Source: a virus (lineage: Duplodnaviria > Caudoviricetes). From it: 24,852 bases of DNA. The stretch spans positions 1-24,852 of IMG/VR virus record IMGVR_UViG_3300042252_000041; one strand, 5' to 3'. Numbering within the stretch: the first letter of the stretch is position 1; each line of letters begins with the position of its first letter. The notes under the pieces were generated by a model. The model worked only from the letters and a program-made list of their open reading frames with translations, was not told the origin of the DNA and ran no database searches. The position numbers and the translations under genes were made by a program. Positions 5,031 through 18,008 of the stretch are shown in pieces.

Positions 5031-5496
5031 GGTCCGCGTCACCTGGGCTGAGCGCGGGCACCTGCCGGCTATCGCCGCCGACATGCGCCTGGCAGACCGG
5101 CGCGAGGTGCAGGCGTCGAGCGGCCTGGATCCGCTGTCGTCGCTACGGTGGAGCCTCGACAACAGCGCGCTCGCCTGGACCGGCTGGGTCGACGGCGAGC
5201 CGGTGGCCATATGGGGCGTCGCGAGCGTGGGCCTCCTGTCCACGCAGGGCGCGCCCTGGCTGCTCGGCACCACGGCCCTGGAGCGCCACCAGATCCCCTT
5301 CCTGCGGCGGAACAAGGCCTTTATCGCCTGCATGCGCGCGCAGTTTGCGACGCTCGCCAACCATGTGGATAATCGAAACACGCTCTCGATGCGGTGGCTG
5401 CGGTGGCTGGGCTTCGAGATCGAGGAGCCGAAGCCCTATGGCGTGCTCCAGCTGCCGTTTCGCCGCTTCACGATGAAAGGGCTGCTCGATGTGTAA
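5023..5496 (+). CDS. GNAT-fold virion assembly protein (T7 gp13-like), 157 aa
   Basis: MR.AD..E, G.PWLLGT, L.N.VD.RN..S.RWL.WLGF motifs; position between nozzle and ejection genes. Confidence 0.82.
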   Translation: MTEVRVTWAERGHLPAIAADMRLADRREVQASSGLDPLSSLRWSLDNSALAWTGWVDGEPVAIWGVASVGLLSTQGAPWLLGTTALERHQIPFLRRNKAFIACMRAQFATLANHVDNRNTLSMRWLRWLGFEIEEPKPYGVLQLPFRRFTMKGLLDV

Positions 5497-6133
5497 CCCC
5501 GCCATACTGGCGGTCGCCTCGATCGCCGCCACGGTGGTCGGTGGAATGATGCAGGCGCAGGGCGCGGCCAATCAGGCGGCGGCGGCGCAGCATGCCATCA
5601 ACATGCAGAACCAAGCCCAGGCGGCACAGTCGGCGGCGCAGACCAAGGTTGATCAGGGGCGCTACGACTACCAGGCGACGGTCGAGCGGAACAACGCCCA
5701 GGCGGCGCGCTACATCGCCGAGGACGAGGTTCACCGCGGCAACGTCGAGGAAAAGCAGTACCGCATGCAGGTCGCCCAGCTGCGGGGGCGGCAGCGCTCG
5801 GTGCTGGCGGCGAGCGGCGTGGCCCTCGACGAGGCCGGCACCAGCGCCATGGACGTGCTCGCCGACACCGACTACCTGGCCGGCAGCGACGTCGGCGTGA
5901 TCCGCTCCAACGCCAAGCGGCGCGCCTACGAGTCCCGCCTGCGCGCCGCCGATCACGAGGCGCAGGCCGGCGCGCTCGACTACGGCGCCGCGGCCGCTCC
6001 GGTCGAGAACTACCGGACGCCCGCCGCCTACACCGGCCCGTCGCCTGGCGCGGCCGCGGCCCCGGCGCTGGTCGGCGCGGCCGGCTCGGTCGCCTCCAAG
6101 TGGTACGGCTTCAAGAAGGAAGGGGTCTTCTAA
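5489..6133 (+). CDS. Small internal virion/ejection protein (T7 gp14-like position), 214 aa
   Basis: MC.P start followed by a hydrophobic Ala/Gly helix; G.QR...AASGV motif; Ala/Gln-rich. Confidence 0.8.
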   Translation: MCNPAILAVASIAATVVGGMMQAQGAANQAAAAQHAINMQNQAQAAQSAAQTKVDQGRYDYQATVERNNAQAARYIAEDEVHRGNVEEKQYRMQVAQLRGRQRSVLAASGVALDEAGTSAMDVLADTDYLAGSDVGVIRSNAKRRAYESRLRAADHEAQAGALDYGAAAAPVENYRTPAAYTGPSPGAAAAPALVGAAGSVASKWYGFKKEGVF

Positions 6134-7956
6134 TGCCCCGCGTCCCTACCGCCAGCGAGGCCGGGCTCGGCCAGCAGACGCCCCAGGCGCTCACGATCCC
6201 GCAGCAGACCAGCCGGCTGCCGCACGTTCGGGTGCCGATGGACGAGTCGTTCCGCTACGTCAGCGGCGAGCAGGGCAGGGCGCTCGAGCGCATGGGCCGC
6301 CAGCTGGATCGCGCCGGCGACGACTTCGGCCGCATCGCAATCGAGCAGCAGCGCGAGTACAACCTGACCGCGGCGAAGGAGGCCGACGCCGCCGCCTCCG
6401 ACCGGATCCGCGCGCTGCTCTACGACCCCACGGAGGGCTTTCTCAACCTACGCGGCCGCGACGCCATGGATCGGGCGCCCGACATCCGCGAGCGGCTGGA
6501 AGCTGTGCGCAAGGACGTCGCTGGGAAGCTGGAGCCCGGCGCCGCCGAGATCTTCGAGCGCTATTGGGAGAACCGGCGCGAGAGCGGCCTCCTGCGGATC
6601 GACAACCACCACGCCAGCGAGATGCGGCGCTGGAAGGACACGGTCAACGAGTCGCTGCTGAAGTCGGCGCTCGACGACGCCGTGGCGGCCGCCGGCGACC
6701 CGGAGATGGTCGGCCAGGCCGAGGGCGCCATCCGCGCCACCGTCGAGGACGTGGGCCGGGACAACGGCTGGACGCAGGACATCGTGGTCCAGCGCACGAA
6801 GGAGGCGCTGACCGAGATGCACAAGGGGGTGGTGACCACCCTGCTCAACGAGAAGCAATACGGCCGGGCGGCGGCGCATCTGCGCGAGGCGATCGCCGAC
6901 GACGAGATCTCCGCGGTCGTGGCGTCGAGCCTCAAGGACAAGATGGAGACGGCGCGCAAGGTGGCGGCCGAAGAGAGCCGGGCGGCGCGCGTGCAGTCGC
7001 AGGTCGACGCCTGGACGGGTGAGGGGCTGTCGACTGCGGAGATGCTGGAGCGCTCGCGGCGCCTGCCGCAGAAGGACCGCGACGAGGCGCGCAAGCGGAT
7101 CCGCTGGGCGGCGCAGGAGCGGGAGATCGCGGAGGAGGAGACGCACGAGGCGGCGCGCGACCGGGCGACGGACATCATCGACGGTGGCGGCCGGCCAGAG
7201 GATATCCCCTTCAGCGACTGGACGGCGCTCACGACCGCCGAGCAGGCGACGCTCGAATCGCGCTGGCGGCGTCGGGTGACCGGCACCGAGCCGGTGACCG
7301 ATGAAGAGCACTTCCAGGAGCTCCTCATCGAGGCGCAGACCGATCCCGAGGCCTTCGCCAAGCGCGACCTGCTCGCCATGCGCGAGAAGCTCGACAACGG
7401 CGACTTCGAGACGGTGCGCAAGCTGCATGCGGCGACCAAGGCAGCGGCCAAGGGCGACCCGGCGCCGGCCGACTTCTCGGTCCTCTCCCAGAAGGAGTCG
7501 ATCAAGATGATGCTCGAGGCGGCCGACATCGAGACGAATCCGAAGCCGGGGTCGGACGAGGCGAAGGCGCTGGCCGAGTTCCACCGGACGCTCGGCCAGC
7601 GGGCCCGCGCCTTCGAGGTGCAGAACGATCGCGAGCCGAATCAGGCCGAGGTCGAGGAGATGGCGCGCGCGCTGCTCTCCGACGTCGCGATCCGCGGCAG
7701 CGAGGGATCGTTCCTGGGCCTCAAGCTCACCGGCCCCGACCGGGCGCGCGTCTACGAGGTGCCGCGCGGCGAGCCGACCTTCGTGCCGGCAGACGAGATC
7801 CCGCCCGGCGACAAAGCCTTGCTGCTGGAAGACGGCCGGGTGCGCGGCAAGAGCCTGACGCCTGGCGACCTCGAGGATCTCTACGCCGCCTACCTCGCCG
7901 GCGACCGCGCCCGCTACGAGGCCATCCTCGAGACGGCGGGCGCTGCCGATGAGTGA
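6133..7956 (+). CDS. Middle internal virion/ejection protein (gp15-like position), 607 aa
   Basis: TAATG coupling with the upstream gene; MPRVP start; helical, charged composition; synteny. Confidence 0.75.
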   Translation: MPRVPTASEAGLGQQTPQALTIPQQTSRLPHVRVPMDESFRYVSGEQGRALERMGRQLDRAGDDFGRIAIEQQREYNLTAAKEADAAASDRIRALLYDPTEGFLNLRGRDAMDRAPDIRERLEAVRKDVAGKLEPGAAEIFERYWENRRESGLLRIDNHHASEMRRWKDTVNESLLKSALDDAVAAAGDPEMVGQAEGAIRATVEDVGRDNGWTQDIVVQRTKEALTEMHKGVVTTLLNEKQYGRAAAHLREAIADDEISAVVASSLKDKMETARKVAAEESRAARVQSQVDAWTGEGLSTAEMLERSRRLPQKDRDEARKRIRWAAQEREIAEEETHEAARDRATDIIDGGGRPEDIPFSDWTALTTAEQATLESRWRRRVTGTEPVTDEEHFQELLIEAQTDPEAFAKRDLLAMREKLDNGDFETVRKLHAATKAAAKGDPAPADFSVLSQKESIKMMLEAADIETNPKPGSDEAKALAEFHRTLGQRARAFEVQNDREPNQAEVEEMARALLSDVAIRGSEGSFLGLKLTGPDRARVYEVPRGEPTFVPADEIPPGDKALLLEDGRVRGKSLTPGDLEDLYAAYLAGDRARYEAILETAGAADE

Positions 7957-10900
7957 TCTTGCGAACTGGCTGCAGCAGGGCGACCCGGGCGCGCCGGCGG
8001 ACCTGACGCCCTCGGAGCCGGTCGACAGCCCCCTTGGGCAGTGGCTCCAGCGCAGCCAGTCCAGCGACGTCGAGCGCGCCCGCTGGCAGGCGCTGATGAA
8101 CCTCCAGGGCCAGGCTCACCGCAAGCCCGACGACATGGCCGAGGCGAGCCTCCTGTCGGGCGCGATCGGCGTGCCGCCGAAGATCATCGAGAAGGACCTC
8201 GACGCGGCCCGGGCGAAGGCGCGCAACGACCAGATCCGCAAGCTGGTCGACGAGGGCTTGGCCACGCCGCGGTTCCTGGCCGACCCCGACAACGCCGCGG
8301 CCGCCCAGGACGAGGTCGAGAACCTCGTCTTCCACGAGCGCGCGTGGAAGAGCCTGCGCGGCGCCATGGCCGAGCTTCCCGAGGCCTTCGAGCGCGGCCG
8401 CAAGACGACCGAGATGGGCGTCATCGGCAACCGCATGGCCACGACGGGGCTCTCGGAGGCCGAGCGGCAGCGCCTCGACCAGCTGCGCGAGTCGCTGGCG
8501 GCCGTGCCGGAGGGCGAGGGGTTCCTGACGGCGGCGGCCGAGCTCGCCGGCAATATGTACGACAACCTGCTCTCGGCGCTGCAGGTGGGCGTGGGCGCCG
8601 GCACGACGGCCGCGACCGGCGCGGCGATCGCCGGCCAGGCCGGGCCGCAGATCGCGACGCCCGAGGAGCTCATCACCGTTCCCGGGGCCTTCGTCACCGG
8701 GCTGACTGCCGGCACCGCCGCCGAGCTCGCGCGGCGCTCCTTCATCGTCGAGCAGGGCCACAGCTACGTAGAGATGTACTACGCCGCCAAGGAAGCGGGC
8801 GTGGAGTTCGACCCGCAGACGGCGGCGATGCTGTCGGCCGGCGTCGGCCTGGCCAATGCCGGCCTCGAGATGGTCGGCGTTGCCACGGTCGCGCGGCCCT
8901 TCAAGCAGGCGCTCAACCGCGCCTTCAGCCGGGACGTGCTCGCCCAGGCGCTGAAGCGCCAGACCCGCGCCGGTGCCGCGCGCGCCTTCGCCGGCAACTA
9001 CGCCCTCGGCGTCGGCGGCGAGACGGCGACGGAGATGCTGCAGGAGATCGCGCCGGCCGTCGCACAGTCGCTCTACGACTACTACCAGAGCGGCGACTGG
9101 CAGGGCCTCGACACCGACCAGCTGGCCCAGAACATGGCCGAGATCGGGCTGAAGACGGCGCAGGGCATGGCCGTGCTTGCCGTGCCGGGCCCGACGACTC
9201 GGCTGGTGGGCGACCTCAGCCGGGCCAGCCAGTCGCGGCTGCAGGAAGAGGCGATGCGCCAGCTGCAGCAGGGGGCGGTCGACAGCAAGCTGCTGCAGCG
9301 GCTCCCGGATCGCTACCGCGCCTTCGTCAAGGCGATGGGCGAGGAGGGCGGCATCGACGCGGTGTCGATCGAGGCCGAGGCCTTCGAGTCCTATTGGCAG
9401 AGCCAGGTGCCCAACGAGGCCGAGCGGCTGGCGATCTACGACGCCCTCGGCGTGCGCGGCCAGGTCGAGGCGGCGCGCCAGACGGGCGAGGACGTCCAGA
9501 TCCCGATCGAGCTCTGGCAAAGCCGGATCGCGCCGACCGACCACTTCGAGGCGCTTCTGCAGGATGCGCGCCTGCGCCCCGGCGCCTTCACGCCGCGCGA
9601 GGCCCGCGAGTGGGTCGCGAACGGCCAGGACACCGCCTTGCGCACGGCCATCGCCCAGGCCCAAGCGGACGTCGACGCGGGCGTGACGGAGATCGAGGCC
9701 TCGGCGCCGGGCAGGGTCTTCGCCGGCGTCGAGCGCTCCCTGACGGCCACCGGCATGGATCCCGAGGCCGCGCGGAAGAGCGCCACGATCCATCTCGGCT
9801 TCGCGCGCGTGCTCGAGCAGGAGTACGGCATCGACCCCGAGGCCTTCCACGCGCAGGAGATGGGGCTGCGGGTCGTCAGCGGCACTCCGGCGGCGCCGAC
9901 CGCGACCCGCGTGGCCAAGCCTGCGTCGCAGCGCGGCCCGCTCGACGCCGCCCGGTTCCTCGCCGGCCGGGGCGGGATCCGCGACGACCAGGGCCACGAC
10001 CTTCGCCGCGGCCGAAACCTGCAGAAGCTGACGCCCGAGGGGCCGCTGATCCGTCAGACCGGACTGTCGATCGACGAGGCGGGCGAGGCGCTGTGGGAGG
10101 CGGGCTTCTTCGGCCCGCTGGAGACGACGCTGCGGCCCGACGAGTCGCAGGTGCTCGAGCTGCTGGAGCGCACGGCCGAGGGCCGGGTGTTCACGCCGGA
10201 AGAGGCGGACGCGGCTGCGGCCGACCTCGCTGCCGCATCGAACGCCGATCAGGAGGCGACCCTGCGCGAGGGCATCGCCGCGACGGCGCGCGACATGGGC
10301 TTCGAGTTCGCCGAGGCGGACGTCGACGCGGCACTGCGCGCCATGGCCGAAGATGGCCTGGAGATCGACGATGCGGTAGACTTGCAGATCGAGCGCTTGG
10401 CCATGCAGACGCTCGACGACCTCGAAAGCGAGACCGGCGACAATGCCTACGACATCCCGTTTGACGACCCAGCTGAATCGGCCGAAGGCGATCGAGCTGC
10501 TGGAGCGCGGCGCGACGGACGAGAGGGCCAGCCCGGAGACGCGGGCGAAGGCGAAGCTGGCGGCCGACCTGCTGAAGGCCTCGGAGGCGCGGAGGGGCCA
10601 GACGGCCTAACCTTCGAGCAGGCGCCGGCGCGGCCGCGCTCTCACGAGGCGCGCAGGCAGGGCATCCCGCCGGCGGCCGACCCGCCACTTCAGTCGTTCC
10701 GGAACACGACTCCGCTGAAGGCGCACCCCGACTACGCCGCGGCCAAGGCCGGCGACCGCGCTGCTGCGGTGCGGCTGGTCACCGACCTGGTGCCGCAGAA
10801 GACGCTCGACGAGGCGGCCGAGCGGTTCGGGCCCGGCGCGATCTTCGCTGCGGCGCACGCCGAGGAGGCGAGCGGAAGAAACGCCATCCCCACCACGCTG

Positions 10901-13900
10901 GCCGACCTTCTCGCGGCCGCGACGGACGGCCGGGCCGACGACGGGATCGTGCAGGCCAACCGGGCATTCCATACCGGCGCCAAGGCGATGGAGCGCATGA
11001 TGGCCCGGCCGCTGTTCGACGGGCCGGTCGAGCCTGGTGGGCGCTATGTGCTGGTCGATGACGTCACCACGATGGGCGGCACGCTCGCCGAGATGGCGAA
11101 CCACATCATCGACGGCGGCGGCCAGGTGGTGGGCGTCGTCACCCTTGCCAACGCCAGCCGAACGCCTACATTGGGAGCTTCGGCGCAGCGCGTGCGCGAG
11201 ATCGAGCGGAGGTACGGCGATGCAGTCCGAGAAGTCTTCGGCACCGAACCTGCCGCGCTCACAGCAGCCGAAGCCCAATACGTCCTCGGCTTCCGAGATG
11301 CTGACTCCCTCCGAGCTCGAGCAGCTAAGGCGCGACAAGAGAGAGACGAGCGCCTACGCGCGCGAGGCGTTCTCCCATCTGCGCCGGAAGAAGGCCAGCT
11401 AGGCGAGGGCGACCCGCCGACCTTCTTTCAGCCGGCCTGGCACGGCAGCCCGCACATATTCGACCGGTTCAGCCTGGACGCCATCGGCACTGGCGAGGGT
11501 GCGCAGGTCTACGGCTGGGGGCTCTATTTCGCAGGCAAGCGCGAGGTCGCCGAGTTTTATCGGGACGCTCTTGCGCGCGGGCCGGCTTGGCGGACGGCGG
11601 CTGGCGAGGAACTCGACCTTTACGACTTGGCCAGGGAAGCCGAGGCCGGCAGCCCGGAGGCTTTGGCCGCTTCCTTCCTGAAGCAGCGCACCTCAGTCGA
11701 CAACGCCCTATGGACGGCCCGCCATAGCCATCCAGACGAGTTCATCGGCGGCGAGCAGGAGAAGCAGGCGACGATTGCGGGCCTTGAGGAGTTCAAGCGA
11801 CGCGGCTTGAAAAAGGGCAGGCAGTCGCGGCTCTACAAGGTCGAGATCCCTGAGGACGACACCTTCCTGCTCTGGGATAGGCCGTTTCGCGAGCAGCCGG
11901 AGAAGGTGAGGGCCGCGCTGGAGCGTCTTGACGTCGACCTTTTCAGGCGATGGCAAGAGAACGGGGCTTGGCCGCATATCGCCGGGCGGGACCTCTATTC
12001 TGCGGCAGCCGGCCCGCGGGGCATGGAGATGCGGAACGCGGAAGGTCAGAAAGCCGCGTCTCTCGCGTTGCGTGATGCCGGCATCAACGGGATCAAGTAC
12101 CTCGATCAGGGCAGCCGCGCCACCGGCGATGGCACCTACAACTACGTCATCTTCGACGACAAGCTGGTTGAGATCGTCGAATTCGAGCAGCGGCGCGGCG
12201 CCGGCGGACCCCGCGGCTCCGTCTCCTTCGGTCAGGATCAGACGATCATCCGGCTGCTGCCGGGCGCCGACCTTTCGACCTTCCTGCACGAGTCCGGCCA
12301 CTTCTTCCTCGAGGCGCTCAAGCGCGTCGCCGAGCGGCCGACCGCCTCGCAGCGGGCCGTAGACGACTACCGGGCCATCGGCGCCTGGTATCGCGACCGG
12401 GCGGGCGCCGTCGCCACCGAGGCGGCGCGCAGCGGGCCCTACCGCGTCGTGCCGCAGGCCGGGGGCTTCGAGGTGCGCTACGGCGCCCGGGTCGGGGGCA
12501 CCTACCAGAAGAAGGCCGAGGCCGACGCCGCGGCGAAGGCAGCAAACGAGAACGTGGCCGGCCGCCTCGATGCCATGGGCGAGGCCGGGGTGATCGAGTT
12601 CCTCGACACCGGCACCACCGGGCAGCCCGACGCCGACATGGCGATCTCGACCGCGCTGCACGAGCAGTTCGCCCGCGGCTTCGAGGCCTACCTGATGGAA
12701 GGCCGGGCGCCGAGCCCCGACATGCGCTCCGTCTTCCAGGCCTTCCGCGCCTGGCTGGTGCAGATCTACCGGAACCTGCGCGGGCTCGACGTCGAGATCG
12801 ACGACCGCATGCGCCGCGTCTTCGACCGGCTGCTGGCCACCGACGAGCAGATCGCGCTCGCCGAGCAGCAGAACATCTACGCGCCGCTGCTCGACAGCGC
12901 CGAGGCGGCCGGCCTGTCGCGCGAGGACTTCGAGCAGTACCTGCGCGCGGCCGAGGCGGCGACGCGCGTCGCCGAGGACGAGCTCCTCAACGACGCCATG
13001 CGCGAGGTCGCGCGCGAGCGCACCGAGGAGTGGCGCGCGGCCCGCGACGAGATCACGGAGCAGGTCACCGAGGAGATCGACCGGAATCCTGCCTACCGGG
13101 CGCTGCGCTACCTGACCGAGGGGCGGCTGCCTGACGGCCGGGTAGAGCCGGAGCACCGGCGCCTCGACAAGGCCCAGCTGGTCGCCGAGTACGGCGAGGA
13201 GATCCTGCAGGAGCTCGGCCGCGGCTTCGGCCGGGCTTACCAGATCAGCGGCGGCATGCGCCTCGAGGAGGGCGCCGAGCTGCTCGGCTACCGGAGCGGC
13301 GACGCGCTGGTCGAGGCCCTGCGCGGGCTGCCGCCGCGGCGCCAGGCGATCGCCGACAAGGTGCGCGCCCGGCTCTCGGAGCGGTTCGGCGACATGATGA
13401 AGGACGGCTCGATCGTCCAGGCCGCGCAGGATGCCGTGCACAGCGACGCCCGCGGCCGATTCCTCGAGGTCGAGCTCCGCGCGATCAGCAAGCGCGGCGC
13501 GCCCGACATGGCGACGCCGGCCGAGGCCGCGCGCGCCTTCGCCGCCAGGACCATCGCCGAGCGCGAGGTCGGGAAGATCCAGCCCGACGCCATCCTGATG
13601 GCCGAGCGCAAGGCCGGTATGAAGGCCGAGCGCGCGCTGGCGGCCGGCATGTACGAGGAGGCGGCGCGCCAGAAGCGCGCGCAGCTGATCAACCACTACC
13701 TCTACATGGAAGCCCGCGACGCGGCCCGCGAAGTCGGCCAGGGCCGCGCCTACCTGCGCCGGGTCGCCAGCCGGAAGGGCGTGCGGGAGGCGATCGCCGG
13801 CGAGTACCTGGCGCAGATCGACGACCTGCTCGCCCGCTACGACTTGGCGGTCAGCACCACCGGCAAGGAGATTCGGGCCCGCCAGGATCTGCGCGCCTTC

Positions 13901-16174
13901 ATCGCCGAGAAGGAAGCCGCCGGCGAGGCCATCGTCGTCGACCCCAAGCTGGTCGAGGATGCCCGGCGCCGGAGCTACAAGGAGCTCTCGCTCGAGGAGT
14001 TCCGAGGCCTGCGCGACGCCGTGCGGAACCTGCAGCACATCGGCCGCAAGGAGCAGGAACTCCGGCTCGAGGAGGAGCGGCGGCAGCTGCAGGAGATCGC
14101 CGACGACCTCGTGATGCAGATCGGCCAGACGCACCGCGAGGTGCCGACCGGCCGTGTCTCCCGGGCCAGCGACCTGGCGCGGCGCACCCGCGGCCAAGTG
14201 GCCGGCGCGCTGCTCAACGCCGACACCATCCTGCGCGAGATGGACGGCTGGGAAGATCAGGGGCCGGTCTACCGGAACATCAAGGGCGTGATCGACAAGG
14301 CCTATTCCGAGCGGCTGGTGCCGCTGCAGGAGCGCATGGCCGACCAGCTGACCGCGCTCTTCGGCCGATTCAGCCGTGCCGAGGCGAAGAAGATGGCCAA
14401 GGCGCGCGCCCGCGACTGGCTCGACGGCGAGGAGCTCTCCCGCTGGGAGTTAATCGCCATCGCGCTCAACGCCGGCAACGACGGCAACCGGGAGGCGCTG
14501 GTCGAGTCCGGCAAGTTCACCGCCGAGCAGGTCGACCAGACGCTCGCCGAGCTCACCGCGCGCGAGCTCGAGTTCGTGCAGGCGACCTGGGACCTGGTCG
14601 AAGGCTACTGGCCGGAGATCGCCGCGCTCGAGGAGCGCCGCACCGGGGTCGCGCCGCCGAAGGTCGAGGCCACGCCGATCGAGGTGACCAGCAGCGACGG
14701 CCAGGTCGTCCAGATGCGCGGCGGCTACTACCCGCTGAAGTACGACGCGCAGCTGTCGGCCAAGGTCGACGAGGAGACGGTCGACGAGTTCATGCAGGGC
14801 ATCCGGGCCGGCCGGTTCGCCCGGGCGCAGACGCGGCACGGCCACACCATCGAGCGTGTCGGATCCGGCGGCCGGCCGGTGCGGCTCAATATGAGCGTGC
14901 TCACTCAGCACCTGCATCAGGTGGCCTACGACCTCGCCCTCGGCGAGGCGGTGACCTGGGCCGACAAGGTGCTGAAGCACAAGGACGTGAAGGAGGCCTT
15001 TCAGACGGTCGGTAAGCGCGAGGCCTGGAACATGCTCGACATCTGGCTGAAGGACGTCGCCACCGGCGAGGTGATCGCCGGCGACGTCGTCAGCCGGTCG
15101 CTGCGCTGGGTGCGCGTGGGCTTCACGATCAGCCGAATCGGCTGGAACCTCGGCACCGCCGTCATCCAGCCGACCGGCTTCCTGCAGACCTCGGTGCAGA
15201 TCGGCAAGCGCAATGCGCTCTACGGCCTGATGCAGCTGGCCAACGTCAGCCGCTGGTCGGGCCCGAACAGCATCTTCCGGCAGGTCTACGACCAGTCGGC
15301 CTTCATGCGCGAGCGCGGGACGACCTTCAACAAGGACATCTACGACACGATCCGGCAGATCGACCGCGTCGCCCTTGGCGGCCGCAACATCGTCGAGCGC
15401 CTGGCGGCGCCGGCCTGGGCGGTCAAGGGCGGCTTCTTCCTGATGGCCAAGACGCAGCAGATCGTCGACGTGGCGACCTGGCTGGGCGCCTACCGGCAGG
15501 GCAAGGCGAAGTTCGGGGCCGACGACCGGAAGGCCCTCGACCACGCCGACCGCATGGTGGCCCGCTCCCAGGCCTCCGGCCTGTTCTCCGACCGCACGGC
15601 GATCGAGCGCGGCACGCTCTCGACAAACCACCGCCAGGTCGAGGTGGTGCGCATGTTTACGGCCCTGGCGTCGTACATGATCGCCAAGAACAACGTCGCC
15701 TATGAGCGGATCAAGCGCACCAACCCGCGGAGCCCGGCGCAGGTGGCCGGGCTCACCATCGACCTGATGCTGCTCTACACGGTCGAGGCGCTGATCATCG
15801 GCCTGATCCGGGGCTACTTCCCCGACGAGGACGATGACGAGGGCGCCGCCGAGTGGCTCGCGAGGGAGTCGCTCTTCGCGATGATGGGCGGGATCCCGCT
15901 GGTGCGCGAGTTCGCGGCCGAGAGCCAGGGCTTCCGCGGCGGCGGCGCCTTCGCCTCCGCGCTCGACCTCTACGGCCGGGCGGCGGCGCAGGTCGATCAG
16001 GGAGAGTTTGACAAGGCGTTCTTCAAGGCCAATATCGACTTCGCGGGCGTGCTCCTTCACTACCCGTCGAGCCAGATCAATCGGACTTTCGATGCCTTCT
16101 GGCGCGACGTTGTGGAAAAGGATGACGTGGCGCTGATCGAATACTTGATGAAGGTAGACACGGAAGATGACTAG
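7949..16174 (+). CDS. Giant polyvalent internal virion/ejection protein, 2741 aa, with PRTase-like, ADP-ribosyltransferase-fold-like and zincin (HExxH) modules
   Basis: Uninterrupted ORF at the gp16-like position; VLVDDVTTMGGT PRPP loop (11048); WHGSPH.F..F...G.G....GWGLYF (11438); FLHESGHF (12281) plus HEQFARGFEAY (12659); hydrophobic helices near both ends. Confidence 0.88.
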   Translation: MSDLANWLQQGDPGAPADLTPSEPVDSPLGQWLQRSQSSDVERARWQALMNLQGQAHRKPDDMAEASLLSGAIGVPPKIIEKDLDAARAKARNDQIRKLVDEGLATPRFLADPDNAAAAQDEVENLVFHERAWKSLRGAMAELPEAFERGRKTTEMGVIGNRMATTGLSEAERQRLDQLRESLAAVPEGEGFLTAAAELAGNMYDNLLSALQVGVGAGTTAATGAAIAGQAGPQIATPEELITVPGAFVTGLTAGTAAELARRSFIVEQGHSYVEMYYAAKEAGVEFDPQTAAMLSAGVGLANAGLEMVGVATVARPFKQALNRAFSRDVLAQALKRQTRAGAARAFAGNYALGVGGETATEMLQEIAPAVAQSLYDYYQSGDWQGLDTDQLAQNMAEIGLKTAQGMAVLAVPGPTTRLVGDLSRASQSRLQEEAMRQLQQGAVDSKLLQRLPDRYRAFVKAMGEEGGIDAVSIEAEAFESYWQSQVPNEAERLAIYDALGVRGQVEAARQTGEDVQIPIELWQSRIAPTDHFEALLQDARLRPGAFTPREAREWVANGQDTALRTAIAQAQADVDAGVTEIEASAPGRVFAGVERSLTATGMDPEAARKSATIHLGFARVLEQEYGIDPEAFHAQEMGLRVVSGTPAAPTATRVAKPASQRGPLDAARFLAGRGGIRDDQGHDLRRGRNLQKLTPEGPLIRQTGLSIDEAGEALWEAGFFGPLETTLRPDESQVLELLERTAEGRVFTPEEADAAAADLAAASNADQEATLREGIAATARDMGFEFAEADVDAALRAMAEDGLEIDDAVDLQIERLAMQTLDDLESETGDNAYDIPFDDPAESAEGDRAAGARRDGREGQPGDAGEGEAGGRPAEGLGGAEGPDGLTFEQAPARPRSHEARRQGIPPAADPPLQSFRNTTPLKAHPDYAAAKAGDRAAAVRLVTDLVPQKTLDEAAERFGPGAIFAAAHAEEASGRNAIPTTLADLLAAATDGRADDGIVQANRAFHTGAKAMERMMARPLFDGPVEPGGRYVLVDDVTTMGGTLAEMANHIIDGGGQVVGVVTLANASRTPTLGASAQRVREIERRYGDAVREVFGTEPAALTAAEAQYVLGFRDADSLRARAAKARQERDERLRARGVLPSAPEEGQLGEGDPPTFFQPAWHGSPHIFDRFSLDAIGTGEGAQVYGWGLYFAGKREVAEFYRDALARGPAWRTAAGEELDLYDLAREAEAGSPEALAASFLKQRTSVDNALWTARHSHPDEFIGGEQEKQATIAGLEEFKRRGLKKGRQSRLYKVEIPEDDTFLLWDRPFREQPEKVRAALERLDVDLFRRWQENGAWPHIAGRDLYSAAAGPRGMEMRNAEGQKAASLALRDAGINGIKYLDQGSRATGDGTYNYVIFDDKLVEIVEFEQRRGAGGPRGSVSFGQDQTIIRLLPGADLSTFLHESGHFFLEALKRVAERPTASQRAVDDYRAIGAWYRDRAGAVATEAARSGPYRVVPQAGGFEVRYGARVGGTYQKKAEADAAAKAANENVAGRLDAMGEAGVIEFLDTGTTGQPDADMAISTALHEQFARGFEAYLMEGRAPSPDMRSVFQAFRAWLVQIYRNLRGLDVEIDDRMRRVFDRLLATDEQIALAEQQNIYAPLLDSAEAAGLSREDFEQYLRAAEAATRVAEDELLNDAMREVARERTEEWRAARDEITEQVTEEIDRNPAYRALRYLTEGRLPDGRVEPEHRRLDKAQLVAEYGEEILQELGRGFGRAYQISGGMRLEEGAELLGYRSGDALVEALRGLPPRRQAIADKVRARLSERFGDMMKDGSIVQAAQDAVHSDARGRFLEVELRAISKRGAPDMATPAEAARAFAARTIAEREVGKIQPDAILMAERKAGMKAERALAAGMYEEAARQKRAQLINHYLYMEARDAAREVGQGRAYLRRVASRKGVREAIAGEYLAQIDDLLARYDLAVSTTGKEIRARQDLRAFIAEKEAAGEAIVVDPKLVEDARRRSYKELSLEEFRGLRDAVRNLQHIGRKEQELRLEEERRQLQEIADDLVMQIGQTHREVPTGRVSRASDLARRTRGQVAGALLNADTILREMDGWEDQGPVYRNIKGVIDKAYSERLVPLQERMADQLTALFGRFSRAEAKKMAKARARDWLDGEELSRWELIAIALNAGNDGNREALVESGKFTAEQVDQTLAELTARELEFVQATWDLVEGYWPEIAALEERRTGVAPPKVEATPIEVTSSDGQVVQMRGGYYPLKYDAQLSAKVDEETVDEFMQGIRAGRFARAQTRHGHTIERVGSGGRPVRLNMSVLTQHLHQVAYDLALGEAVTWADKVLKHKDVKEAFQTVGKREAWNMLDIWLKDVATGEVIAGDVVSRSLRWVRVGFTISRIGWNLGTAVIQPTGFLQTSVQIGKRNALYGLMQLANVSRWSGPNSIFRQVYDQSAFMRERGTTFNKDIYDTIRQIDRVALGGRNIVERLAAPAWAVKGGFFLMAKTQQIVDVATWLGAYRQGKAKFGADDRKALDHADRMVARSQASGLFSDRTAIERGTLSTNHRQVEVVRMFTALASYMIAKNNVAYERIKRTNPRSPAQVAGLTIDLMLLYTVEALIIGLIRGYFPDEDDDEGAAEWLARESLFAMMGGIPLVREFAAESQGFRGGGAFASALDLYGRAAAQVDQGEFDKAFFKANIDFAGVLLHYPSSQINRTFDAFWRDVVEKDDVALIEYLMKVDTEDD
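10443..10610 (+). CDS. Candidate nested +1-frame small protein, 55 aa (MPTTSRLTTQLNRPKAIELLERG...KLAADLLKASEARRGQTA)
   Basis: ATG 10443 to TAA 10610; the +1 frame uses host-like G/C-ending codons while the main frame turns low-complexity with A/T-ending codons; RBS weak; alternative TTG start at 10461. Confidence 0.55.
   Translation: MPTTSRLTTQLNRPKAIELLERGATDERASPETRAKAKLAADLLKASEARRGQTA
11145..11172 (+). promoter_or_regulatory. Candidate intragenic sigma-70 promoter for the nested gene at 11220
   Basis: TTGCCA-N16-TACATT, built from codons atypical for this gene (CTT, CCT ACA TTG). Confidence 0.5.
11220..11402 (+). CDS. Candidate nested +1-frame small protein, 60 aa (MQSEK...MLTPSELEQLRRDKRETSAYAREAFSHLRRKKAS)
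   Basis: GGAGGT SD at 11208-11213, 6 nt before ATG; upstream promoter-like element; codon bias shifts to the +1 frame; amphipathic helical C-terminal half. Confidence 0.68.
   Translation: MQSEKSSAPNLPRSQQPKPNTSSASEMLTPSELEQLRRDKRETSAYAREAFSHLRRKKAS
16008..16035 (+). promoter_or_regulatory. Candidate intragenic sigma-70 promoter near the giant gene's 3' end
   Basis: Consensus TTGACA (16008-16013), N16, CAATAT, in a locally AT-enriched stretch. Confidence 0.4.
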
Positions 16175-16175
16175 G

Positions 16176-16322
16176 GTGCCGCGGGTCAAGCGTGACCCCT
16201 GGCATAACCTGAAGGTCGAAATTGATTACTGGAGCCCGATACTGTTCAAGGGCGTCTGGTTTCTCGGCCTCGGGTTGATCGCCCTGCTCTTCGTTCTGGT
16301 CGGGACCGGCCACTTCGGCTGA
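16176..16322 (+). CDS. Small single-pass membrane protein, 48 aa (MPRVKRDPWHNLKVEIDYWSPILFKGVWFLGLGLIALLFVLVGTGHFG)
   Basis: Translated by hand (below the ORF-track cutoff); GTG 1 nt after the giant gene's stop; clear hydrophobic helix; fills the intergenic gap. Confidence 0.62.
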   Translation: MPRVKRDPWHNLKVEIDYWSPILFKGVWFLGLGLIALLFVLVGTGHFG

Positions 16323-16397
16323 TTCGACTGGACGAGATCGGGTGTAGCGACGCGCCCTCACCATGGGCAAAATGACCTTGCCATAGGCGAGGGGCCC

Positions 16398-18008
16398 ATG
16401 ACGGTCGAAACCCCGACGAACAGCGTCACCTACACCGGCAACGCTTCGGCGACGTCGTTCTCCTTCGGCTTCCCGATCTTCGAGGAGGGTGACCTCAAGG
16501 TTACCGTCACCGATGCGGACGGGGTCGAGATGGAGCAGACGCTGGGCGTCGACTTCTCGGTCACGGTCGCCGAGTACCCTGGCAACGGGTCGATCACCTA
16601 CCCGCTCTCCGGCTCGCCGCTGCCGGCCGACGAGCAGATCACGATCGAGCGCGACCTGTCGCCGACGCAGCTGGTCGACCTCGTCAACGGCAACACCTTC
16701 TTCGCCGAGGTGATCGAGCAGGCTTTCGACCGGGTGACGATGCTCGCCGCCCAGGCCCGGGAAGGCCTCTCGCGCGCGATCAAGCTGCCGGTCGCGTCGG
16801 ACCTGGCGGACCTCACGCTGCCGGCGCCCTCGGCGCACAAGACGATCCGCTGGAACGTCGACGGGGACGGCCTCGAGAACGGCCCCTCGATCGAGGATAT
16901 CAACGACGTGGCGGCCAGCCACGCCAGCGACGCCGCGGACAGCGCCTCGGCGGCGGCCAGCAGCGCGAGCGCGGCGGCTGCCTCCGAGCTCGCGGCAGAC
17001 GGCCACGCCAGCGACGCCGCCGACAGCGCCGGCGCCGCGGCGACCTCGGCGGCGGCGGCCGCGGCGGCGCTCGACAACTTCGACGACCGCTACCTTGGGG
17101 CCAAGGCAGCCGACCCCGCCCTCGACAACGACGGCGACCCGCTGGTGCAGGGCGCGCTCTACTACAACACCACCGAAGGCGAGATGCGCGTCTACGACCA
17201 GTCGTCGGCGCAGTGGATTCGGGCGTCGTCGGCGGTCGCCTCGACGATGATCCTCTACCGCTTCATCGCCACGGCCGGCCAGACCACCTTCACCGGCGTC
17301 GATTCGCTGGGGCGCACGCTCAACTATGTCGTCGGCAACATCCTGGTGTACCGGAACGGCATCCTCGGCGACCCGGTGAGCGACTACACGGCGACGGACG
17401 GCACCTCGGTCGTGCTGGCCAGCGGCGCCCTCGTCGGCGACGAGATCAGCATCCTGGCGGTCGAGCCGTTCCAGATCCCGAGCGTCTACACGAAGGCGCA
17501 GTCCGACGCGCGCTACTACACCCAGGCCCAGGTGGATGCGGCGATCGAGGCCACCAAGGAGGCGCTGCACCCGGTCGGGTCGTTCTACTTCACCGGCGGC
17601 AACACCAACCCGGCCAGCCTGCTCGGGTTCGGCACATGGACGCAGCGGGCGCAGGGCCTGGCGCTCTTCGGCGTCGGCACCGGCACCGACCAGAACGCGG
17701 TGGAGAAGACCATCGCGGCTGGCGCCAACGCGGGCGAATACGAGCACACGCTGACCGAGGCAGAGCTCGAGCCCCATACGCACGTCCAGAGCTCGCACGC
17801 CCACGGCGCAACCAGCTACGGGATCGACGTCTCGAAGCGCACAGTGGCCGAGGGCTCTGACTTCCTGGTGGTCGACGACGTGACGCTGGACAGTGGTGGC
17901 GCCAGCACGGGCGGCGCGACCGCGACCAACCAGAGCACCGGCGGCGGCGATGCCTTCAACGTGACGCCGCCCAGCTTCGGCCTCTACGTCTGGGAGCGCA
18001 CCGCATGA
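16398..18008 (+). CDS. Tail fibre protein with T7-gp17-like N-terminal anchor, Ala/Ser stalk and C-terminal tip domain, 536 aa
   Basis: Y.GN..AT.F.F.F.IF...DL.V and E.A.DR.TM..Q anchor motifs; FDDRYLG.K...P..DNDG..L..GALY; HPVGS.Y....NP..L.GFGTW tip motif with HTH/HAH. Confidence 0.88.
16918..17030 (+). repeat. Two 29-bp direct repeats, 84 bp apart, in the fibre stalk
   Basis: GCCACGCCAGCGACGCCGC(G/C)GACAGCGCC at 16918-16946 and 17002-17030; 28-aa (four-heptad) period. Confidence 0.8.

Follow-up and report, generated by a model that had tools for sequence, protein, structure and literature searches.

The window, a 24,852-base virus record with virion genes, contains a giant gene whose PRTase module is almost certainly overprinted by a second, real gene in the +1 frame. 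We consider, with a probability of about 0.6, that the 60-aa product of this nested gene is a helical antitoxin or immunity peptide that binds and inhibits its own PRTase, the toxicity being taken from the homologous KfrC protein of plasmid RA3.

The nested gene and its conservation

The giant gene (7949..16174, plus strand) encodes a putative ejection-type virion protein of 2741 aa that matches phrog_9880 and phrog_22413. LPD22 (residues 52-140) and the PRTase lie within the same ORF, and the protein is polyvalent as Iyer et al. (2017; PMC5512222) use the term. The PRTase module (10715..11371, plus strand; residues 923-1141) belongs to the KfrC/TraN clade; it has a type I PRTase fold with a DD motif (11057-11062), resides in a mobile element, and ends in a helical subdomain. 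The predicted structure of the module had a pLDDT of 94, and the solved folds nearest to it were PyrR, ComF, and ShosT, with TM values of 0.36-0.44. In the model, the stretch overprinted by the nested ORF is the helical subdomain (pLDDT 91-98), which places the ORF over a folded part of the predicted enzyme and not over a linker.

The nested gene extends over 11220..11402 on the plus strand, from ATG 11220 to TAG 11400-11402, in the +1 frame of ORF 7949-16174. The first-pass annotation had claimed that it possesses its own promoter and Shine-Dalgarno sequence and that the main frame uses rare codons across it, and every one of these elements was found. A sigma70-like promoter, TTGCCA-N16-TACATT, is located at 11145..11172 (plus strand; TTGCCA 11145-11150, TACATT 11167-11172). 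The Shine-Dalgarno sequence GGAGGT (11208..11213, plus strand) is formed from the main-frame Arg codons CGG-AGG and lies 6 nt before the ATG. AGG is indeed rare, with 10 occurrences among the 2742 codons of the giant gene, and CGA accounts for 6 of 61 main-frame codons under the nested ORF compared to 17 of 2742 gene-wide. Main-frame codons ending in A or T numbered 29/61 under the nested ORF, 17/161 in the PRTase core, and 42/820 in the N-terminal part. The nested ORF itself has 51 of 60 codons ending in G or C, as had been claimed, and the helical segment proposed for its product was also predicted by modeling, at residues 30-50 with a pLDDT of about 95. The promoter-like site was the sole one within 7900-16400, but taken alone it is weak evidence because shuffled sequences give 0.3 ± 0.7 such sites. 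An internal ATG at 11298 was ruled out as the true start, as Met was present there in just 15% of 94 aligned members.

The locus sample for the comparison included the best 80 of 111 genome-scan loci and the best 80 of 260 metagenome-scan loci. In total 193 homologous loci were fetched, 193 of 194 including the window were mapped to the anchor, and 127 were left once those at least 85% identical were dropped. Synonymous codons of module residues 179-229 were then resampled with the main protein held fixed. No +1 stop was present in 126 non-redundant loci, compared to 230.6 ± 10.7 in the simulations (minimum 204, 500 runs). Control stretches contained 255 stops where 254 were expected and 146 where 140 were expected, and the +2 frame held 406 stops over the tested region. 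In the full set, the +1 frame was open in all 187 close loci with at least 45 aligned codons, a count that leaves out six short alignments and one unmapped locus; RP4 and locus L001, which stand outside it, were separately found to carry the nested ORF.

The amino acids of the second frame were conserved far beyond expectation. Leu28 of the peptide was present in 127/127 loci (23.7 expected), Thr29 in 115 (55.8), Ser31 in 121 (42.6), Glu32 in 125/127 (19.4), Leu36 in 126/127 (22.4), and Phe, Leu, or Tyr at position 51 in 109/112 (42.6). Leu28, Glu32, and Leu36 are encoded by various synonymous +1 codons, over a main-frame position that may be occupied by A, V, T, I, P, or L. At Leu36, for example, all six Leu codons occur over a varying main-frame residue. 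The third-base entropy was 1.03 compared to 1.71 bits, as under selection on second-frame amino acids. The key residues of the peptide are fixed via synonymous sites of the main frame, and selection acts on the +1 protein. The locus is a clear natural example of selection for two proteins in a single set of codons, where one of the proteins is a folded subdomain of an enzyme.

The start signals were conserved as well, which bears out the claim of a gene with its own promoter and Shine-Dalgarno sequence. A start codon was located 30 to 22 codons from the anchor in 126 of 127 loci (118 ATG, 7 GTG, and 1 TTG). The Arg that forms the Shine-Dalgarno sequence was encoded by AGG in 70/126 loci, compared to 4/126 and 6/127 at two other conserved Arg, and a Shine-Dalgarno score of at least 5/6 preceded 82 of 139 ATGs in the start region but only 27 of 706 other +1 ATGs. 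With a promoter score devised here (shift of 2, spacer of 16-18, and a bonus for an extended -10), values of at least 8 were reached by 37% of the loci at the homologous site, by 21% at the adjacent codon, and by no more than 10% elsewhere. A promoter-like site was found in 31 of 40 loci with a fused module (6.6 expected, maximum 13 in 200 runs), in 11 of 74 stand-alone loci (2.2 expected), and in 5 of 13 loci of unclear context (1.6 expected). The contrast between fused and stand-alone loci is confounded by kinship and is not independent evidence, because a quick tree of 122 rows groups 48 promoter-less rows into a single clade of 50, while the excess over resampling in the fused loci stands.

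The peptide family and its association with the PRTase

The conserved core of the peptide (residues 28-51; 11301..11372, plus strand) follows the pattern LTxSEIxxLRQxKKxIxDYxQKxF and corresponds to an amphipathic helix with an N-cap. In the model, the N-terminal half is extended, rich in S, P, and K, and of low confidence, and it is followed by one long helix. The conserved hydrophobic residues 33, 36, 43, 46/47, and 51 share one helix face. A profile of the peptide matched 829 proteins at E ≤ 0.001, of which 268 reached E ≤ 1e-10 (50%-identity representatives). The best 150 matches were mostly 54-75 aa long and aligned from near residue 1, and the relatives looked up were without a name or annotated as 'hypothetical'. 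The peptide defines a family so far without a name. The peptide had no consistent match in Pfam, NCBIfam, PHROGs, PADLOC, or PDB; in the ESM Atlas it hit only unnamed clusters, below 0.9; a single-sequence search gave one match; and tblastn against plasmids yielded only E values of 2-6 among the matches listed (30 of 59). A DNA-binding domain like that of classical, autoregulating type II antitoxins was not found: the peptide is modelled as a single helix, no family was above the cut-off for the window peptide, and none was consistent in 94 members. In each of seven small proteins (P0122, P0123, P0139, P0145, P0172, P0223, and P0235), the core helix occurs in tandem, with two to four copies; a search for the DNA of two of these proteins gave no match.

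Co-occurrence with the PRTase had been suggested as a check of the nested gene, and it held in most cases. In 401 genomes the peptide profile matched 6 and the PRTase profile 5, with 4 in common, one of them the seed genome. Five of the six peptide matches overlap the PRTase or its C-terminal fragment; in genome G119 the overlap is with a PRTase fragment at a contig end. The PRTase of G179 bears a weak peptide match. In locus L210 (G371:C19:20106-20189, minus strand) a peptide-like short ORF has no open PRTase frame, and this copy is an orphan or a remnant. Stand-alone relatives of the PRTase module numbered 378 among 8000 scored candidates, and the module shares about 33% identity with plasmid KfrC/TraN. 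In 11 hand-picked plasmid or phage regions, the nested ORF was present in four of six with the PRTase and in none of five kfrC regions without it, although the loss of the peptide along with the PRTase in a shortened kfrC is partly trivial because the DNA is shared. The two exceptions, a Moraxella nonliquefaciens plasmid (L219) and an Opitutaceae plasmid (L227), retain an intact DD motif, but their +1 frame is interrupted by stops and the retrieved DNA shows no match to the peptide. The proposal of the first-pass annotation, a cognate antitoxin or regulator of the PRTase, is the preferred reading; it is in keeping with the linkage in close loci (187/187) and in five of six genome matches, but two of six distant PRTases are without the ORF.

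The nested ORF was found in RP4, in RA3, in Marinobacter, Xanthomonas, and Acinetobacter plasmids, and in Moraxella phage Mcat8. It is located at CP152305 53810-53634 in kfrC of RP4 (minus strand; L003 2805-2981) and at NC_010919 4305-4472 in kfrC of RA3 (L194 1806-1973). In both plasmids a TTG lies six bases after a Shine-Dalgarno-like run. The PLSDB gene tables for RP4 and RA3, which are incomplete, do not list the ORF. It is likewise not mentioned in the text available from PMC8124265, PMC5512222, PMC7414963, PMC6961859, PMC7314908, and PMC11952213. A literature search, with subscription papers mostly outside its range, found no report of the ORF, and an earlier description is possible. A new toxin-antitoxin locus of RK2 may have been reported recently, but a literature search for such a report found none. 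The kfrC genes of RP4/RK2 and RA3 contain an unlisted gene, so deletions or truncations of kfrC have also removed or altered a second gene.

Three further observations were made at these loci. In phage Mcat8 (L228 1901-2020), the depositors annotated a hypothetical protein, AKI27356.1, that overlaps the PRTase-bearing 'coat protein' gene and seems to correspond to the 3' portion of the nested ORF. Locus L217 (G004:C1:3036000-3046000) contains an extra C-terminal part of the PRTase with a nested ORF, 3.3 kb from the full cassette. In L224 (653-1440) and L225 (568-765), a VbhA antitoxin gene lies directly upstream of kfrB, where kfrC is without the PRTase; in L224 a Fic gene accompanies it.

Proposed action of the peptide on the PRTase

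Evidence for the toxicity of a PRTase of this clade comes from KfrC of RA3. In the available text of Mitura et al. (2021; PMC8124265), the slowing of growth by KfrC depends on the host and is abolished by a DDT-to-AAA mutation. Overexpression of full-length kfrC, which in RA3 carries an intact nested ORF, slows E. coli and has no effect in C. necator. In the same text, RA3 without kfrC was destabilised in two hosts, showed no clear change in retention in two others, and was retained better in one, so that the deletion does not in every host resemble what losing a simple addiction module would do. A truncated gene, kfrC1-249, was not clonable under tacp, and it was clonable in pBGS18 and as two-hybrid fusions (PMC8124265, available text). 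The cut retains 44 of 55 nested codons plus the last conserved Leu, with every strongly conserved peptide residue among them, but the last 10 residues and the stop are replaced. The unclonability fits damage to an antitoxin, but it is weak support because the core of the peptide survives and the other 1-249 clones were made; the loss of the C-terminal domain of KfrC itself explains the result equally well. Three two-hybrid prey clones for T25-KfrC that start at RA3 4307, two bases into the nested ORF (Table 2 of PMC8124265, as available), were considered as peptide fusions and rejected, since 4307 is in the KfrC frame; the frame was calibrated on seven VirD4 clones.

We propose that the PRTase module would be a self-contained effector-plus-inhibitor cassette that may move among giant phage proteins, stand-alone genes, and plasmid kfrC. 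The internal promoter would drive the peptide ahead of the late transcript or separately from it, and the peptide would bind and silence its own PRTase through the amphipathic helix. This could shield the producer cell during synthesis and packaging of the giant protein, and it could shield cells that already possess the element against PRTase that related phages inject or related plasmids deliver. Overprinting would tie the inhibitor to the toxin, so the cassette could be shuffled into new polyproteins with its immunity kept. Tandem repeats and orphan copies are also seen with immunity genes, and by this analogy the tandem core-helix proteins and the PRTase-free copy may be counted in favor of an immunity role.

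The arrangement has precedents. In lambda Rz1 within Rz and comS within srfAB, a same-strand, out-of-frame gene with its own start lies within a longer gene. The likeness to the nested ORF is one of arrangement, without sequence relation, and these are not known to be toxin-inhibitor pairs. The nested gene is an overprinted gene of a known kind, which probably works like an antitoxin or immunity protein. In Rhs toxin-immunity pairs, the internal promoter reportedly drives a toxin fragment and the immunity gene is separate, unlike the present case, in which it would drive only the small partner overprinted on the folded domain of the toxin itself. These type II TA pairs likewise have internal promoters in a giant delivered-toxin gene with a cassette of toxin and immunity gene (Starsta et al., 2020; PMC7043789, available text). 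ShosTA also has a toxin with a PRTase fold, which the module matched weakly (8zvc, TM 0.37; profile E 0.0055), but it differs as a type IV system in which ShosA is a separate DNA-binding protein and ShosT is also a pyrophosphatase (Pu et al., 2025; PMC11961720, available text). No likeness to ShosA was detected, as neither nested peptide of the giant gene matches PADLOC. A further counterpart is KfrC/TraN (Upf54.4) of the IncP-1alpha plasmid RK2/RP4 and the IncU plasmid RA3, with a homologous PRTase and the same +1 ORF; according to the available text of Mitura et al. (2021; PMC8124265), KfrC differs in being fused to a plasmid-specific helical tail and not to a virion protein. In the text available from Iyer et al. 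(2017; PMC5512222), phage polyvalent proteins likewise contain a PRTase domain with a DD motif; its role is called enigmatic, it is suggested to target rival elements, and solo forms occur, whereas no nested or partner gene is mentioned. This enigmatic role, in polyvalent proteins and in KfrC, becomes directly testable through the peptide.

The peptide might instead be a true partner of the PRTase that is no plain inhibitor, such as an adaptor, an activator, or a trigger-sensor that sets target or timing. We hold this to be unlikely. It would share the linkage and conservation data with the inhibitor reading and agree with the host-dependent growth inhibition by full-length kfrC despite its nested ORF (PMC8124265, available text), but a separate promoter within a late virion gene fits protection better, as do the tandem helix repeats and the PRTase-free copy. 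We give slightly less credit to the view that the peptide is a small effector in its own right, perhaps one that inhibits a host protein, and that it arose by overprinting and stays with the PRTase only through shared DNA. The copy in L210, the multi-repeat proteins, the PRTases without a peptide, and the second nested ORF of the giant gene, counted as lying in a linker, speak for such an effector, but the peptide is kept in all 187 well-aligned close loci and in several phyla, across phages, plasmids, and chromosomes, which suggests a target travelling with it. It is very improbable that the +1 frame is no separate gene at all but a frameshifted alternative C-terminus, or that it arises from constraints on the main frame or the RNA. 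In favor of this reading, the frame in the window is open for about 72 codons upstream of ATG 11220, and an Asp codon partly accounts for the ATG at the main site (of 127 loci, 92 have it and 50 would be expected to). Against it, a +1 stop at most 25 codons upstream of the start in 104/127 loci argues for initiation rather than frameshifting, the Shine-Dalgarno sequence and promoter are conserved, 231 stops would be expected from resampling at a constant main protein, and the antisense frames are without comparable openness (21, 1, and 57 of 126).

Returning to the peptide as an inhibitor of its PRTase, the pair is a candidate type II TA system, and the genetic linkage of the two genes was found in 187/187 close and 4/6 distant loci. 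There is about an even chance that the pair is a TA module, with the antitoxin overprinted on the folded domain of the toxin, in virion-delivered phage polyproteins and in kfrC of RK2/RP4 and RA3, and that, more widely, every effector domain of a polyvalent protein may come with a nested immunity gene (two in the present case), giving injected toxin arrays with kin protection. If true, a TA module in kfrC of RK2/RP4 and RA3 had gone unnoticed.

Surroundings of the module in the giant gene

Upstream of the giant gene lies a T7 gp14-like internal virion gene (5489-6133, phrog_418), and a 618-aa gene (6100-7956) is located between the two. From this gene order, we infer that the 2741-aa protein is ejected into the host. 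Across most of the giant gene, about 95% of the main-frame third positions are G or C, a share that falls to 0.50-0.57 at two internal spots, about 10440-10610 and about 11220-11400. The first spot coincides with a second nested +1 ORF of 55 aa (10443-10610, plus strand), which belongs to a separate family and lies at the end of an upstream domain without a name (residues ~660-830). Its GC3 was 0.93, compared to 0.58 for the main frame. L196, L004, and L202 have, at the corresponding position, a +1 ORF that shares this codon signature, and the L196 counterpart shares 48% identity over 40 aa. The ORF was missing in L089, L197, L199, L203, and L205, where the match to the upstream domain stops earlier. 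The second nested ORF and the upstream domain are possibly a second effector-partner pair. Locus L195 was discarded as a chance match. On the 3' side of the PRTase, a module at 11411-12208, without a Pfam match, shows a lower GC3 and a split His/Tyr motif pattern as in ADP-ribosyltransferase-like polyvalent domains, and may be such a domain.
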